64,000 nt of DNA from Escherichia phage GADS24: sequence record OQ703618.1; one strand, written 5' to 3'. Below are positions 4,481 to 53,168 of the stretch, piece by piece; positions within the stretch are counted from its first letter, which is position 1, and each line of letters begins with the position of its first letter. Under the pieces are notes generated by a model that did not search any database, had not been told where the DNA came from, and worked only from the letters and a program-made list of their open reading frames with translations. The position numbers and the translations under genes were made by a program.

Positions 4481-5095
4481 CTACTTAATGAAATTAATTT
4501 CTACCGGATGAACAACAGGTTGAGCAGTGATATATTGAGTAATTGCTTTCATGACTAGAGCTTCAGAACCAGGATTTTTCTCAACGAATTCACGTGCTTG
4601 GTTATGAGCTTCAAGTTCACTTAGTAAACCACTTCGTTGGCATCCACGGTCTTGAGTACCTTGTTCAGATAAAAAGACGACGATGTATTTTTCATCGTCA
4701 TACGGTTTAGACGGTTGAGCAAATGTTCCTTTACTTCCAAAAGGAGAGTTATGACGCCACATCACGCCGTGAGGAGTTTCAACCTTCGTATATTCATGCG
4801 GGCCATTTTTCTTAGTTTCTTGATGTGGAACTTCGTGGACCTTAGGGTTAGGACATTCAATAAAATGCTCATCTAAATCGGTCGAGAATATTAAAGTAAA
4901 ACAATTACTAAATTTACCAACACCTGCCTGATAAATTTTACCTTCAGAAGTTCTAATTTCACAAACTGAGCCAGCATCAGTAACTTCTAAAACTTCAAAA
5001 GGCTCGATAAGGTCATATGAGAACATGTTTTTAAGGCGTGGAGTAATATCCCCATTTTTAAAATTCATTTTATAAAAAGTATTAACTTTAAACAT
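4481..5095 (-). CDS. hypothetical protein, 204 aa
   Basis: ATG 5093-5095 with GAGGAAA RBS. Confidence 0.55.
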   Translation of the reverse strand: MFKVNTFYKMNFKNGDITPRLKNMFSYDLIEPFEVLEVTDAGSVCEIRTSEGKIYQAGVGKFSNCFTLIFSTDLDEHFIECPNPKVHEVPHQETKKNGPHEYTKVETPHGVMWRHNSPFGSKGTFAQPSKPYDDEKYIVVFLSEQGTQDRGCQRSGLLSELEAHNQAREFVEKNPGSEALVMKAITQYITAQPVVHPVEINFIK

Positions 5096-48156: not shown

Positions 48157-48336
48157 TTAACCCTTCTTAAGTAAGTCGTAAAAACCACCATTTACATGTT
48201 TAGGAGCAGAAACCCGACGAGTAGACAGACGATGACATTCAGGGCAAACATCGTTTTCTCGTTCAGAGATCCTTTTAATTTTTTCATATTCATGACCACA
48301 ATCTTCAGATTGACATTTATAGTCGTATAACGGCAT
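48157..48336 (-). CDS. FmdB-family zinc-ribbon protein, 59 aa (below ORF-track cutoff)
   Basis: Hand translation MPLYDYKCQSEDCGHEYEKIKRISERENDVCPECHRLSTRRVSAPKHVNGGFYDLLKKG; CxxC...CxxC with FmdB-like N-terminus MP.Y.Y.C..CGH.YE. Confidence 0.5.
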   Translation of the reverse strand: MPLYDYKCQSEDCGHEYEKIKRISERENDVCPECHRLSTRRVSAPKHVNGGFYDLLKKG

Positions 48337-48338
48337 TA

Positions 48339-48749
48339 TTATTCCTTAAAATGTGCTTTCAACATTTGATACAAAGACCATGCCTGGTCGGTATTTTCGA
48401 TAGTAATCGTCATCACCGGAAATTCAGACAATTCGTCAAGTTCACCAGAATCTTGCTCTTCAGACGCTTGATACGGATTTCCAACTTCGTCAAAGAACTC
48501 TGCTTCATTCGTAGAGAGCCAGATAAAGTTTTCATCAAGGATATCACCACCTGTTGCGTATCCAACCGCACCAGTAGATGTTAAAATTTTAGTAGGACGT
48601 CCGAGATGGTCAACATCTAAAATTTTAAAAGGTTCCATGCCAAGACGTCGTGCATAAATCCCATTATCAGTGTGGTCTTTAATAAACTCTTCTTGGGCCC
48701 GTTTATCTATAAATTGGTACCATGAGTTAACGCGGAATTTATTAGCCAT
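48339..48749 (-). CDS. hypothetical protein, 136 aa
   Basis: ATG 48747-48749 overlapping upstream stop (TAATG); track ORF has 6-codon extension. Confidence 0.5.
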
Positions 48750-48976
48750 TAGTAAGTTTCCTTCCAATAAGTTGTACCATTTTCAGTGATTTCACGGAAG
48801 ATGCCATAGATAGGCATTTCGTCACCGAGTTTTTCGTAAACGTAAACCACTTCGGTGTAGCATAAAAATTCAGTCCAGCTTTTTTGTACAACAACTAAAT
48901 CAGGATTAAACAGAACATCTTCAAACTCATTGATGTTTGAATCAGTAGTTACGTTTTTAATGATTTGACGTTTCAT
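48749..48976 (-). CDS. hypothetical protein, 75 aa
   Basis: ATG 48974-48976 with GAGGAGAA RBS; upstream extension in track would run through the promoter. Confidence 0.5.
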
Positions 48977-49004
48977 AATATTCTCCTCTTGTTTTGATAG
49001 GTCT

Positions 49005-49034
49005 ATAGTATCATAGACCATAGTTGTTGTACAT
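49005..49034 (-). promoter_or_regulatory. Early promoter variant (ATGTAC -35, 18 nt, TACTAT)
   Basis: Motif match. Confidence 0.4.
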
Positions 49035-49558
49035 CATTTTAGCAAAATAAAATCAACTTGTTCTGCCAATGAACGTCTGAACATTAATTGACAACTTCCG
49101 AGGATGAAATCAGGTGCTTCATAGACCGCGATGTAGTATCCTTTAGCTTTCAAGAGTTCAACATCCACCTGGTCATCAAACCATGCATAAACCGCGTCAA
49201 CACTTTCAAATCCAAAATAGAACCCTTGAGCCCAATCTTCGCTCAATTCAAATGCGTGATCAATTCTATAGTATCTTAAGATATTTTGTTCAAGGAGTTT
49301 GTCTTCATTTACTGTAGGACGATTAGGGACATTATAGTTGTCGCCGTGATGGTAGAAGTTACCTGAGAGTATTCCATGCTTATCAAGGAACTCCCATGTT
49401 TCTTCAGAGTTGTCGGTGCCCGACCAACCGTATGGCGAGCGAGGTTCTTTATTCCAAGAGGTTTCCCAAATTCTGACGGCTTTACCGTCTTCGATAGCAA
49501 TTCCAGGTAATGATTCACGTTGAGTACAAAAACTACGTTCTACGCGGTAAACTAACAT
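49034..49558 (-). CDS. hypothetical protein, 174 aa
   Basis: ATG 49556-49558 with GAGGAGAA RBS. Confidence 0.55.
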   Translation of the reverse strand: MLVYRVERSFCTQRESLPGIAIEDGKAVRIWETSWNKEPRSPYGWSGTDNSEETWEFLDKHGILSGNFYHHGDNYNVPNRPTVNEDKLLEQNILRYYRIDHAFELSEDWAQGFYFGFESVDAVYAWFDDQVDVELLKAKGYYIAVYEAPDFILGSCQLMFRRSLAEQVDFILLK

Positions 49559-49584
49559 ATTATTCTCCTCTGGTTGATATGGTT

Positions 49585-49613
49585 ATAATATCAAAACCAG
49601 AGGAGAAGTAAAC
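49585..49613 (-). promoter_or_regulatory. T4-type early promoter (GTTTAC, 17 nt, TATTAT)
   Basis: Motif match. Confidence 0.5.
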
Positions 49614-49617
49614 AACT

Positions 49618-50037
49618 TTATGCAAAAGCAGCTGGGCTATATTTTTTAATTTGGAATTCAGGAACTACCATGAACTGTCCAGCGAAAACGATGTTATAAA
49701 GCTTGACACCATCTTCTACCCAACGGTCGCTAATAAATCCAGCGATTTGCTTAGTTTTCCACGGCGTTCCATCAGTTGCCGCAGCAATAGTGAATTCATG
49801 GTCTTTTTCAACAGAAACTGATCTGCATAGTCCCCATTTGAACGCTTTTTCTTCTGGTTCAATGAATTGGCTTTTAACGTAGCCAATATTACCATTAGCA
49901 TCACGAACTTTAACTTGGTTACGGCCAAAAACCGGATCACTCACAGAAAGAACTTCAACCAACTTCCCGGCAACTTTAGAGCGAGAAGCAACAGATACAT
50001 ATACGTAATCACCTGTAGAGAGATTTACAATATTCAT
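49618..50037 (-). CDS. paralog family member A, 139 aa
   Basis: Shares C-terminal motif FISDRWVEDGVKLYNIVFAGQFMVVPE and N-terminal SRSKxAGxLVEV with neighbour. Confidence 0.55.
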   Translation of the reverse strand: MNIVNLSTGDYVYVSVASRSKVAGKLVEVLSVSDPVFGRNQVKVRDANGNIGYVKSQFIEPEEKAFKWGLCRSVSVEKDHEFTIAAATDGTPWKTKQIAGFISDRWVEDGVKLYNIVFAGQFMVVPEFQIKKYSPAAFA

Positions 50038-50046
50038 AATAATTCC

Positions 50047-50544
50047 TTAAGCTTTACGAGGAGACACATAGCGAGTGATTTCAGATTCTTTAACAACTCG
50101 GAAGTCACCTAAGAATACGATATTGTATAACTTTTCACCATCTTCAACCCATTGGTCACTAATGAAGCCACACATAATATCAGTTTTGCTTGGATATCCG
50201 TATTCGTCGATGTAATCAAATTCTTTATCGGTTATAAATTCAACGCCTTTGCAAAGGGCCCATTTAAACTGTGTAGTAGGCTCAACGATATCGTTTGAAG
50301 CAAAGTGTGCAGGTGCAACTTCTTCGCTTGAAGCAAATTGGACTCGTATATGTTTTTCCAGGAATTTAGGACTTACGTAAGCATACTGGGCATCTTGTCC
50401 GCCAAAACTAGGAATGATTCGAACTTTAACTTCTTTAATACGTCCCATGCCATTTGTGCGAAGTCCGACAACTTCAACCAGACGACCTGCGGCTTTAGAC
50501 CGGGATGCAGTTGATACACGTTTAATTTCACCAATAGTAATCAT
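50047..50544 (-). CDS. paralog family member B, 165 aa
   Basis: ATG 50542-50544; C-terminal FISDQWVEDGEKLYNIVFLGDFRVV. Confidence 0.55.
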   Translation of the reverse strand: MITIGEIKRVSTASRSKAAGRLVEVVGLRTNGMGRIKEVKVRIIPSFGGQDAQYAYVSPKFLEKHIRVQFASSEEVAPAHFASNDIVEPTTQFKWALCKGVEFITDKEFDYIDEYGYPSKTDIMCGFISDQWVEDGEKLYNIVFLGDFRVVKESEITRYVSPRKA

Positions 50545-50574
50545 ATTTTTTCTCTCTTTGTTTAAGTTGAATTC

Positions 50575-50604
50575 ATTATACTCCATCCATCCTTGGATGT
50601 ACAA
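50575..50604 (-). promoter_or_regulatory. Early promoter variant (TTGTAC -35, 18 nt, TATAAT)
   Basis: Motif match. Confidence 0.4.
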
Positions 50605-50606
50605 CA

Positions 50607-51101
50607 TTAATTTAGAATATTAACTACTGCACTACGTGGAACCACACTAAAGTCACCGGCATGAACAACGTTCAGAAGTTCAACCCCATCTTCAATCCAC
50701 TGGTCAGTTACCCAGCCACTTACCGGTCCAGCGAATGGTCGACGAATTGAAACTGCTTTACACAACAAGTCTGTAGGCTCAATAGGCTTAATCAGAGTAC
50801 CGTACATACAAGCGATATCCATATCAAAGTGGAGACCATCTTTAACAGGTGCTTCTTCAATCAACAGTTCAAAGTCAGTGCTTGGAATGGCGGTAGTAGA
50901 AATTGTACCGTGTGAATTTTTAATTTCTAAGAATAACCAAGGGCCTTCAGCTTGTTTGATGAAGTTAACAATAGTGAAACTATTACCTTGAGTGGCACCT
51001 AAAATTTCACAAAACTTTTCATAAGCTCGCACTGAAGCACCGTACCAGTTGATTTGTTTTTCGTCTTTCAGGATGTAAGTAGCCGTAGTATTGATATTCA
51101 T
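50607..51101 (-). CDS. paralog family member C, 164 aa (MotB candidate by position and size)
   Basis: C-terminal WVTDQWIEDGVELLNVVHAGDFSVVP; gene immediately before dexA as motB region in T4; identity not verified. Confidence 0.5.
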   Translation of the reverse strand: MNINTTATYILKDEKQINWYGASVRAYEKFCEILGATQGNSFTIVNFIKQAEGPWLFLEIKNSHGTISTTAIPSTDFELLIEEAPVKDGLHFDMDIACMYGTLIKPIEPTDLLCKAVSIRRPFAGPVSGWVTDQWIEDGVELLNVVHAGDFSVVPRSAVVNILN

Positions 51102-51132
51102 AATGTTTTTCCTGTTTGGTTAAGATAGAAAG

Positions 51133-51162
51133 ATTATACTCCAACCATCCTTGGTTGTAAAC
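51133..51162 (-). promoter_or_regulatory. T4-type early promoter (GTTTAC, 18 nt, TATAAT)
   Basis: Motif match. Confidence 0.5.
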
Positions 51163-51167
51163 TGATT

Positions 51168-51845
51168 TTATCGCTGTTTTACACTTAACGGGTCAGGATT
51201 CTCAGGGACATCTTCAAGGCCAAGCGCATAACGCTGAGCATATTTTAACATCAAAATATCTTTAGCACAATCATGAATACTATCATGGGCAACGAATCCT
51301 TTTAGCGTACCCATCGGTAATGGACACATACTTAATCCTCGTGTCAACGAGTAAGCTTCGATTGCCGTACGAATATCGCGTTGAGCCCAGAATTTAACCG
51401 GTTCTAATTTATCGGTATCAATCTCTGGTTCAAGAACACCTTCATCACGATAGAGGTCACGAATCAAATCGACCAATATCGGGAAGTCAAAGCTCATACC
51501 ACGGCACCACATCTGTGATTTCCATTGGTCAACTTTATTAGCTCGGCAATAATCTAAAAAGATTTTAATGCCTTCAAGCGTAGTGACATCGTCTTCAGAC
51601 GGAGCTAGGTTTTTACGTGCTTCTGCTGATTGTTCTTTCCACCATTTCATAGTGGATTTAGCGAAAACTCGCTTCCCTTTCTGAGAAGCTAAATTAAATT
51701 TAATTCGCTTACCTCGTTGAACAAGTTCTTCAAATGATTCAACAACTTCAGGGTCGGAATTATATGCAATAACCGCAAGGTCAATAACAGCCGCTTTTGA
51801 TGTATTGCCGAATGTTTCAAAATCTATAATAACATCAGTGCTCAT
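51168..51845 (-). CDS. dexA: exonuclease A (DnaQ-like 3'-5' exonuclease)
   Basis: 225 aa matching T4 DexA (IIDFET.G...AAVIDLAVIA...CRGMSFDFPILVDLIRD...GFVAHDSIHDCAKDILM.KYA.RYA.GLED). Confidence 0.93.
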   Translation of the reverse strand: MSTDVIIDFETFGNTSKAAVIDLAVIAYNSDPEVVESFEELVQRGKRIKFNLASQKGKRVFAKSTMKWWKEQSAEARKNLAPSEDDVTTLEGIKIFLDYCRANKVDQWKSQMWCRGMSFDFPILVDLIRDLYRDEGVLEPEIDTDKLEPVKFWAQRDIRTAIEAYSLTRGLSMCPLPMGTLKGFVAHDSIHDCAKDILMLKYAQRYALGLEDVPENPDPLSVKQR

Positions 51846-51854
51846 AATTTTCTC

Positions 51855-53168
51855 TCAAATAAAATGGACGTCAAACCGACCACGAGTTGTGCCAACATAC
51901 AATAACTGTTTAGCTAATTCTGAATCGGCATAATGGATACACGGTGTATAAACAAAGGCCGTGTCAACAGACATACCCTGGGCCTTATGGAAGGTTGATA
52001 CTGGTAGTGCCTTCACCTTAGTGAACATACGTTTAGCATCCCAGAATTCGCTCCATGGAGCTTTACCACCTTTATTCCAAAATTTGTATGTTTCTGCGGT
52101 TTTAGCCAAAAACAAATTGAATTTATAAAGCTCTTCTTCAGAAGAAATAACCTTTATATCTTCGCGGATGTATTCTTCATCATCCCCATATGTTTCTACT
52201 GTAAGATTCCAGTATCGTATCATATATTCGCCTGAAACACCCCGTGCTTTAACAAATGTAGACGTTTCTACAGCATCTCGAATACGAACGAATTGTCCGT
52301 TATTGAAAAGCATTTCAGTCATATTTTTGCCATCTAACTTATATGTCTTGGTAAACGGCTCTTGTAGAACAATGACTTCATCTTTAATAAATGGCTTTTC
52401 TGTTTCGAGAAGTTTTCGGCGAATAATTGAATTTAACTTGTCTACTGACTTATTTGTGAATGCCATCATTCGATTTTCGAAAAGGTCTTCAGGAGTTTTA
52501 ACGACGTTAAAATAATTCATCATATACGATTTAAGGTCTGTATATCCGTGAACACCGTGCCCATCAACTACTTTATCGTAAATCCATTTGCCATTACGAA
52601 TATCAGTCGCAACATCAATAATTGGTGCATTGCTACGTTTAACTTCTGTAAGGTTGCATTGCACGAAGTCTTTGTGTGTGAAGAAAGGACTTAGATACGC
52701 AGTTGATTCGCCTGGGTCTACCGGACGAATTTGGCATCGGTCGCCGATTCCAATTACTGTACACCATTTAGGGATACTAGCTAACATTATTTTAAACAGA
52801 GAACGGTCGCACATTGACGCTTCATCAAATAACAGCACACGGCACAAGGCTAAGTCTGGAACCTTTTTCTGTTCAAATAATACGTTTTCTTCGTATGTAG
52901 TTGGGTTGATTTTAAGAATGCTATGAATAGTCGATGCTTCTTGACCTGCGAGTTTGCTTAGAACCTTTTTAGCAGCATGTGTAGGGGCTGCTAAAATAAT
53001 ACCTGATTCTCCAGAAGAAATAAGGGCTTCAACGATGAATCTAGTAAGGGTTGTTTTACCTGTACCAGCAGGCCCATTAATAGTTACGTGATGTTTCTTT
53101 TCTTTAATAGCGTTCATAACAACGTTGAAGGCGTTTTTCTGGCCTTCAGTCAAATCATCAAATGTCAT
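51855..53168 (-). CDS. dda: Dda DNA helicase (SF1B)
   Basis: 437 aa; Walker A GPAGTGKTT; matches T4 Dda. Confidence 0.95.
   Translation of the reverse strand: MTFDDLTEGQKNAFNVVMNAIKEKKHHVTINGPAGTGKTTLTRFIVEALISSGESGIILAAPTHAAKKVLSKLAGQEASTIHSILKINPTTYEENVLFEQKKVPDLALCRVLLFDEASMCDRSLFKIMLASIPKWCTVIGIGDRCQIRPVDPGESTAYLSPFFTHKDFVQCNLTEVKRSNAPIIDVATDIRNGKWIYDKVVDGHGVHGYTDLKSYMMNYFNVVKTPEDLFENRMMAFTNKSVDKLNSIIRRKLLETEKPFIKDEVIVLQEPFTKTYKLDGKNMTEMLFNNGQFVRIRDAVETSTFVKARGVSGEYMIRYWNLTVETYGDDEEYIREDIKVISSEEELYKFNLFLAKTAETYKFWNKGGKAPWSEFWDAKRMFTKVKALPVSTFHKAQGMSVDTAFVYTPCIHYADSELAKQLLYVGTTRGRFDVHFI

Follow-up and report, generated by a model that had tools for sequence, protein, structure and literature searches.

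The question raised by this locus is what is encoded by three consecutive open reading frames (ORFs) that follow dexA in a T-even phage genome, and why three such similar genes stand side by side. The locus lies in a stretch of 64,000 nucleotides (nt) from Escherichia phage GADS24 (sequence record OQ703618.1), called the window below. The region 48300-52000 of the window has 98.8% DNA identity to Escherichia phage JN02, its best matches being Mosigvirus, and 95-97% identity to many other Mosigvirus (RB69-like) T-even phages; by these matches the window comes from a Mosigvirus phage. All genes of the locus are on the minus strand, and the three ORFs described in a first-pass annotation of the window are present as follows, given with our assignments and their lengths in amino acids (aa):

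50607..51101, minus strand: motB.1 ortholog, 164 aa (PHROG 2333, Pfam PF17613, 47% identity to T4 MotB.1)
50047..50544, minus strand: motB ortholog, 165 aa (Pfam PF17613 over the full length, PHROG 1671, 46% identity to T4 MotB)
49618..50037, minus strand: second motB copy of the RB69ORF010c type, 139 aa (PHROG 1671, Pfam PF17613, 88% identity to RB27_010)

We consider it very probable that this is the motB cluster typical of Mosigvirus, comprising one family that grew by tandem duplication and to which the mechanism of MotB extends by orthology to T4.

Paralogy of the three proteins

The first-pass annotation had drawn up a pattern for a conserved C-terminal block, and all three proteins fit it (GFISDRWVEDGVKLYNIVFAGQFMVV, GFISDQWVEDGEKLYNIVFLGDFRVV and GWVTDQWIEDGVELLNVVHAGDFSVV). 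The block is found at the following positions:

49663..49737, minus strand: conserved C-terminal block of the 139-aa protein, residues 101-125, FISDRWVEDGVKLYNIVFAGQFMVV
50092..50166, minus strand: conserved C-terminal block of MotB (165 aa), residues 127-151, FISDQWVEDGEKLYNIVFLGDFRVV
50640..50714, minus strand: conserved C-terminal block of MotB.1 (164 aa), residues 130-154, WVTDQWIEDGVELLNVVHAGDFSVV

In the 139-aa protein the invariant residues of the block are D104, W106, E108, G110, L113, N115, V117 and V124. Pairwise BLASTP alignment gave E values of 9e-29 for the 139- and 165-aa proteins (40% identity over the full length), 3e-10 for the 165- and 164-aa proteins and 5e-11 for the 139- and 164-aa proteins, which is far beyond chance, and the Smith-Waterman z-scores against 1000 shuffles were 42, 16 and 16 for the same pairs. 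Profile-profile comparison (hhalign) of the C-terminal domains of MotB and MotB.1 gave a probability of 99.7% (E 5e-27). The reservation that the shared block might be statistically insignificant therefore does not hold. The SRSK-AG-LVEV segment near the N-terminus is, as had been noticed, common to the 139- and 165-aa proteins only.

Family searches gave the same picture. All three proteins exceed the curated gathering cut-off of PF17613 (MotB), which is 25 bits, with 75.9 bits for the 139-aa protein, 129.3 bits for the 165-aa protein and 36.8 bits for the 164-aa protein, the last by its C-terminal part only. Among the PHROGs, the 139- and 165-aa proteins fall in the MotB-like family 1671 and the 164-aa protein in 2333, matching 1671 by its C-terminus alone. 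The common part is a beta-barrel domain of about 55-75 residues. By these alignments and Pfam matches, the trio had been rightly described as a tandem set of paralogs in the region of early, host-takeover genes. Neither a fourth copy nor a free 29-aa C-terminal peptide was found by tblastn in the 64-kb window. We also compared the N- and C-domains of MotB as possible sequence duplicates of each other and found no evidence of this relation (hhalign probability 1.2%).

Much of this is in print. Patterson-West et al. (2021, PMC7827196), who call MotB proper 'Category 1' and MotB.1 'Category 2', reported that a conserved C-terminal domain is common to MotB and MotB.1 while the N-terminal domains differ, and that one of the two genes was probably born by duplication of the other. 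Their Table S6 gives two motB and one motB.1 in RB69, JS09, PhAPEC2, APCEc01 and other Mosigvirus, plus RB51 and Sf24. The trio, its paralogy, the sharing of domains and the copy numbers have thus all been described before, including the arrangement of the three genes in Mosigvirus. The first-pass annotation had itself allowed that the three ORFs might simply be the known motB, motB.1 and motB.2 orthologs, and this largely applies, as they are named, published genes; only motB.2 is not among them, being the 174-aa neighbour outside the trio.

Identification of the three genes

On its homology, the 165-aa protein is MotB. It has 46% identity to T4 MotB and 76% to RB27 MotB, matches PF17613 over its full length (E 1.6e-37, profile positions 2-157 of 162) and belongs to PHROG 1671 at 1.1e-63. 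Its start is supported by T4 and RB69 MotB, which begin at the homologous MI(T/I)IGE; a longer, 186-aa reading of motB was rejected, as that ORF would contain the promoter itself. Residues 1-62 of the protein form a basic KOW/SH3-like N-domain and residues 92-165 the C-terminal domain, with a variable linker (63-91) in between. T4 MotB has the KOW-like SRSKAAG N-domain and the DQWVEDG..LYN.VF C-domain in common with it, whereas the linkers, the most variable part, differ in length and sequence. RB69 MotB has 151 aa as against 165 aa here because of an indel in the linker.

The 139-aa protein is, from its matches, a second MotB copy of the RB69ORF010c type. It matches PHROG 1671 over its full length (6.3e-51) and is 88% identical to RB27_010, an extra MotB-like gene; RB69 ORF010c is annotated as 'similar to motB'. 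The same KOW-like N-domain and C-terminal domain are found here with almost no linker between them, and the invariant S18, S20, A23 and G24 are kept. Identity to T4 MotB is 37% across the same two domains, although the gene is an extra one that T4 lacks. The feature of MotB proper, a SRSKAAG KOW-like N-domain together with a MotB-type C-domain, is present in both the 165- and the 139-aa protein.

The 164-aa protein lacks this feature, since its N-domain is unrelated at the profile level to the KOW-like N-domain of MotB (hhalign probability 0.2%). Instead, it is by homology the MotB.1 ortholog: it has 47% identity to T4 MotB.1 over the full length (residues 3-164), it belongs to PHROG 2333 at 2.3e-81, and the family matches of a Foldseek search in BFVD include the model of T4 MotB.1 (P39415) at rank 7 (E 5e-9). 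An acidic N-domain (residues 1-85) is followed by a disordered linker and a MotB.1-type C-terminal domain (about 109-164). T4 MotB.1, a 13.8-kDa protein, likewise has the same class of N-domain and a PTDLLCKAV...GWVTDQWIEDGVELLNVVHAG C-domain and is encoded immediately upstream of motB, as found here for the 164-aa protein with its MotB.1-type N-domain and PTDLL...GWVTDQWIEDGVELLNVVHAG C-domain; the difference is a linker insert of about 22 residues (HFDMDIACMYGTLIKPI), which T4 MotB.1 does not have. The AlphaFold2 (AF2) model of the 164-aa protein has a mean predicted local distance difference test (pLDDT) score of 80.5, with residues 86-104 below 50.

The reference motB.1 of RB69 (NC_004928, L005 4377-4873) is spread over three reading frames, two frameshifts having left ORFs of 132 and 29 aa, whereas the window and the six further Mosigvirus loci compared have an unbroken motB.1 of 164 aa. 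What the 2021 paper calls the 'Category 3 peptide' is this 29-aa ORF, RB69p012, which corresponds to the C-terminal tail of the frameshifted motB.1.

A motif of about 16 residues was observed in the linker of the 164-aa protein (FDMDIACMYGTLIKPIE, window 50781-50828, minus strand, residues about 92-107). Among the proteins retrieved, its pattern, DxD[IVL][AV][SCH][MTA]Y-x(3-7)-P[LI], occurs in 94 of the 126 whose C-terminal domain is of the MotB.1 type as against 1 of the 145 with a MotB-type one, and its position varies, being directly before the C-terminal domain, N-terminal or internal. The motif is disordered in the AF2 model and absent from T4 MotB.1; it is possibly a short linear motif.

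The order of the genes agrees with these assignments. In the window it is dexA, motB.1 (164 aa), motB (165 aa), second motB (139 aa), motB.2, cef and goF, and the order in RB69 (RB69p009-p013, NC_004928) is identical, namely dexA, motB.1, motB, ORF010c (139 aa), motB.2 (174 aa), cef and goF, the reference annotation of RB69 placing the 29-aa ORF between motB.1 and motB. The order in T4 is different: dexA, motB.2, motB.1, motB, cef, goF, so that motB.2 adjoins dexA and motB is an early gene between motB.1 and cef. The 164-aa gene adjoins dexA here because motB.2, compared with T4, has changed sides in the cluster. The first-pass annotation had placed this third member where motB lies in T4; it is instead a MotB.1 ortholog at the position of T4 motB.2. 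Both the synteny with RB69 and the grouping of the 164-, 165- and 139-aa proteins with MotB.1, MotB and RB69ORF010c, respectively, held when checked.

Promoters and transcription

Consensus matching gave three promoter-like sites around the trio, the two before motB.1 and motB being strong matches:

51133..51161, minus strand: predicted sigma-70/T4-early-type promoter before motB.1, TTTACA-17-TATAAT, 11 of 12 consensus matches
50575..50603, minus strand: predicted promoter before motB, TGTACA-17-TATAAT
49585..49612, minus strand: promoter-like site before the motB.2-like gene, TTTACT-16-TATTAT with an upstream TG, downstream of the stop of the 139-aa gene

The site before motB.1 is identical in phage moskry. 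Each of the three genes had been credited with a separate early promoter, which is borne out for the 164- and 165-aa genes but not for the 139-aa gene: no early, MotA-box middle or TATAAATA late promoter was found within 290 nt upstream of it, the best sigma-70 score there being 8/12. The third promoter of the first-pass annotation was probably the site 49612-49585, which belongs to the unrelated 174-aa gene. Only two predicted promoters thus serve the three genes of the trio. The 139-aa gene starts 9 nt after the stop of motB and has its own Shine-Dalgarno sequence, AAGGAA; because of this short gap and the lack of an own promoter, it is probably co-transcribed with motB from the motB promoter.

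The two promoters of the trio (51133-51161 and 50575-50603), compared alongside the T4 motB promoter (L002 2925), are near-identical in the spacer and the -10 region (CCAAGGATGG(T/A)TGGAGTATAAT). Their spacers contain 6-bp inverted repeats, CAACCA-AGGA-TGGTTG and CATCCA-AGGA-TGGATG, with a compensating A/T change. We considered the repeats as covarying hairpins and rejected this reading because the folding energy is no better than that of shuffled sequences (z 0.04 and -0.9). The likeness of the spacers is probably a trace of duplication, not of structure.

Selection, family size and distribution

The tandem expansion had been taken in the first-pass annotation as a sign of diversifying selection. 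We estimated the ratio of nonsynonymous to synonymous substitution rates (dN/dS) from 8 Mosigvirus genomes and obtained 0.15, 0.23 and 0.14 for the 139-, 165- and 164-aa genes, respectively, compared with 0.02 each for dexA and dda. The trio is clearly under purifying selection, with a constraint weaker than that on the enzymes, and diversifying selection is not supported. Within motB the ratio is 0.68 in the linker as against 0.12 in the C-terminal domain, the range for the shared domain being 0.12-0.14, and only the linker of MotB looks relaxed. In MotB.1, the synonymous divergence (dS) is 0.56 in the C-terminal domain versus 0.08 in the N-domain; this contrast points to recombinational mosaicism, that is, allele shuffling.

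These values bear on the idea that the paralogs expanded in an arms race, each copy being aimed at a different defence or host-factor variant. Such a history would suit genes that lie in a dispensable early region and number from 1 to 3 per T-even genome, and it could draw on the swaps of N-terminal domains among MotB.1-type proteins (classes of 143, 164, 180 and 248 aa) as well as on the high dS of the MotB.1 C-terminal domain. We nevertheless judge it quite improbable, for the three genes and their shared domain are under purifying selection, the C-terminal block hardly varies from genus to genus, the 139-aa copy keeps 84-100% identity in 207 phage records, and in T4 mutants of motB and motB.1 the burst on laboratory hosts changed only two-fold or not at all, with no defence phenotype reported. 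An anti-defence role thus found no support here.

The copy-number survey suggested in the first-pass annotation was run on phage records. Of 777 with a MotB-family match, 207 carry the 139-aa type at 80% identity or more; in the others the best match is below 60% and is MotB itself, so that the band of 60-80% is empty. Because no record has its best match in this band, the 139-aa type is, on these identities, a distinct and maintained paralog. It occurs in Mosigvirus and in some Tequatrovirus genomes (RB3, RB27, RB51 and Sf24) but not in T4 or most Tequatrovirus.

This distribution can also be read in another way, with the 139-aa gene as a redundant, decaying duplicate of motB that has no function of its own. 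The gene is absent from T4 and most Tequatrovirus genomes, it has neither a linker nor its own promoter, and metagenomic fusions of the MotB N-domain with the 139-aa C-domain are what recombination between tandem copies predicts. Decay is, however, very hard to reconcile with an ORF that is intact, has a Shine-Dalgarno sequence and encodes 139 aa in 8/8 genomes compared, with a dN/dS of 0.15, with the retention of every family-invariant residue, with a confident AF2 model, and with conservation in Mosigvirus and in the four Tequatrovirus genomes named above; we regard it as the least probable of the explanations considered. The fusions themselves are three hybrid proteins (P0028, P0029 and P0031) from metagenome contigs of 1-4 kb, in which the N-domain and linker of MotB are joined to a C-terminal domain of the 139-aa type. 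They would be the expected product of unequal recombination between tandem copies, but assembly chimeras are also conceivable.

A profile of the C-terminal domain built from the trio matched only 29 clusters at 50% identity among 1.84 billion representatives. Most of the inspected clusters are proteins of 100-250 aa, in which the C-terminal domain mostly comes after a KOW-like N-domain; three weak matches to repeat proteins of 570-934 aa look spurious. By PF17613 and these matches, the MotB family is small and confined to T4-like phages. Because most clusters carry the KOW domain with the C-terminal domain, this architecture is suggested to be the ancestral form, from which MotB.1 arose via replacement of the N-domain. 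MotB.1-type C-terminal domains are 72-88% identical across classes and are joined to at least four N-terminal architectures (classes of 143-145, 164-169, 177-183 and 241-252 aa), and in Karamvirus-like phages to a KOW domain. Between the N-domain of MotB.1 and that of the 180-aa class there is a weak profile signal (21%, E 0.001).

Domain structure and proposed mechanism

The AF2 model of the 139-aa protein (mean pLDDT 87.7) consists of two five-stranded barrels, each with strands b1-b4, a 3-10 helix and b5. HHpred had assigned the C-terminal domain of MotB to the OB-fold, of the cold-shock DNA-binding type (PMC7827196). The model of this domain has neither the OB order of b1-b2-b3, helix, b4-b5 nor OB-fold neighbours: no OB-fold appeared in either list of the top 60 structural neighbours, in which the C-terminal domain was not searched alone, and the strand order is SH3-like. 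From the models, the published OB-fold assignment is probably not right, and an SH3/Tudor-like barrel is indicated instead. The likeness is to the Tudor, KOW or 'Royal family' SH3-like barrels (53BP1 tandem Tudor, Spt5 KOW and the C-terminal domain of NusG), to which there is no sequence relation (10-21% identity) and from which neither an aromatic-cage function nor a role at the ribosome or RNA polymerase follows. The trio proteins gave no match to Pfam KOW (PF00467) or Tudor, and a sequence search of the PDB found no solved-structure relative of MotB (best E 0.69).

The charges of the two parts differ. The isoelectric point (pI) of the N-domain is 10.7 in the 165-aa protein and 9.2 in the 139-aa protein, whereas the shared C-terminal domains are acidic to neutral (pI 4.7-7.1 here, with 4.7 for that of the 165-aa MotB); MotB.1 is acidic overall (pI 4.8). 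Because the N-domains are basic and the C-domains are not, DNA contact would be made by the basic KOW/SH3-like N-domain, and the conserved C-domain is likelier to be a common module for protein interaction or self-association than a DNA-binding OB-fold. An SH3/Tudor-like shared domain that probably does not bind DNA could guide the domain dissection of MotB and of its role in H-NS remodelling.

T4 MotB binds unmodified DNA and DNA with glucosyl-hydroxymethylcytosine (glucosyl-hmC) without sequence specificity, is toxic, co-purifies with H-NS and StpA, and raises the burst size about two-fold while the T4 transcriptome hardly changes; in RNA-seq of T4 motB-am, the early and middle genes showed no effect, and mild changes were confined to a few late genes (Patterson-West et al. 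2018, PMC6070864). MotB also altered H-NS footprints, and 75 host genes were up-regulated (PMC7827196). The binding of DNA or host factors that the first-pass annotation had proposed for the trio is thus a published activity in T4; it would hold here by orthology, the one supporting feature being the basic N-domain. By orthology, the MotB of Mosigvirus would act as in T4, as an abundant early protein of the nucleoid-associated type that binds DNA tightly and non-specifically. Son et al. (2021, NAR), as cited in other papers, reportedly describe MotB as a nucleoid-associated, nucleoid-compacting protein. The family would have arisen by tandem duplication, followed by replacement of the N-terminal domain in MotB.1. 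The 139-aa copy would be a short-linker MotB, probably acting on DNA like MotB, and the acidic MotB.1, with a predicted LSm-like N-domain, would combine the shared C-terminal module with another N-terminal function. The LSm-like prediction, which refers to an antiparallel sheet of five strands, bent as in Hfq or FeoA, was made for the N-domain of MotB.1 as for GoF and Frd.2 (Kim et al. 2025, PMC12152347).

Several points weigh against this mechanism or narrow it. It has been shown by experiment for T4 MotB only, and extends by inference to Mosigvirus MotB, the 139-aa copy and the isolated domains. The C-terminal domain of T4 MotB is slightly basic, with a pI of 7.9 as against 4.7 in Mosigvirus MotB, so that the argument from charge does not apply equally to all members. 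T4 lacking motB.1 gave a wild-type burst, and an RNA reporter assay showed no effect of MotB.1 (PMC12152347). The promoter calls, for their part, are consensus matches alone.

The LSm-like prediction also invites the view that the family acts on RNA or on transcription elongation and not by coating DNA, the KOW domain working on RNA polymerase as in NusG and Spt5 and the LSm-like domain of MotB.1 on RNA. The historical name 'modifier of transcription' and database names such as 'transcriptional regulator' would accord with it, and so would the case of GoF, which shares the predicted fold and whose D25Y mutant stabilises an mRNA (PMC12152347). But the database names are inherited and not experimental, T4 MotB demonstrably binds DNA, the RNA-seq of motB-am showed no effect on early and middle genes and no more than mild changes in a few late ones, and the reporter assay speaks against an action of MotB.1 on RNA. 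We regard this view as unlikely, and DNA binding by the MotB proteins is the reading that we retain.

A further proposal, unlikely and offered as speculation, is that the C-terminal barrel is not a DNA-binding OB-fold but a Tudor/SH3-like docking module. Through it, N-terminal effector domains of different kinds, two of them basic KOW domains that bind DNA and one acidic and LSm-like, would reach a common target such as H-NS/StpA filaments or one another. The linker motif DxD[IV]A[SC]MY...P[LI] might regulate or extend the docking, and the trio would form a three-part set for anti-silencing or nucleoid remodelling rather than redundant copies.

Neighbouring genes and other observations

The genes on either side of the trio are:

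53168-51855, minus strand: dda, first in the transcription order
51845-51168, minus strand: dexA, between dda and the 164-aa gene
49034..49558, minus strand: motB.2 homolog, 174 aa (PHROG 1106), a synteny marker outside the trio

After the 174-aa ORF, cef, goF, a 39.2-like zinc-ribbon gene and gene 39 follow in the transcription order. The 174-aa neighbour is, by homology, MotB.2 and not a paralog of the trio: it matches PHROG 1106 at 1.9e-45, is 34% identical to T4 MotB.2 (E 4e-16) and has no Pfam MotB match, and the RB69 equivalent of the gene is annotated as motB.2.

The value of the analysis is mainly one of clean-up. It settles the identities of the genes, since many GenBank records label all genes of the trio, and even motB.2, as "transcriptional regulator"; it also indicates two predicted promoters for three genes and removes the idea of diversifying selection. 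GenBank is inconsistent for MotB itself: for window 50047-50607 and loci L001, L006, L008, L009 and L010 the annotated starts give 151 to 186 aa, some reading through the promoter. In the HX01 record motB is split, in that of ST0 it has no annotation, and 'transcriptional regulator' is a frequent label for MotB.2 homologs.

A hairpin is predicted at window 49563-49607 (minus strand), with a folding energy of -23.9 kcal/mol (z -5.7; 0/200 shuffles as good). The loop encloses the -10 element belonging to the promoter 49612-49585, and the Shine-Dalgarno sequence of the 174-aa gene, GAGGAG, is base-paired with the 3' arm. Read-through RNA from upstream would mask the ribosome site of this gene, whereas RNA begun at its own promoter would not. 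A similar hairpin arrangement is known for T4 e, soc, 49 and I-TevI.

Elsewhere in the window, the N-terminal 90 or so residues of a 204-aa ORF (4481-5095, minus strand) are similar to the window's own GoF (tblastn E 9e-4, 29% identity), and the ORF may encode a further protein of the GoF/Frd.2 LSm-like group.

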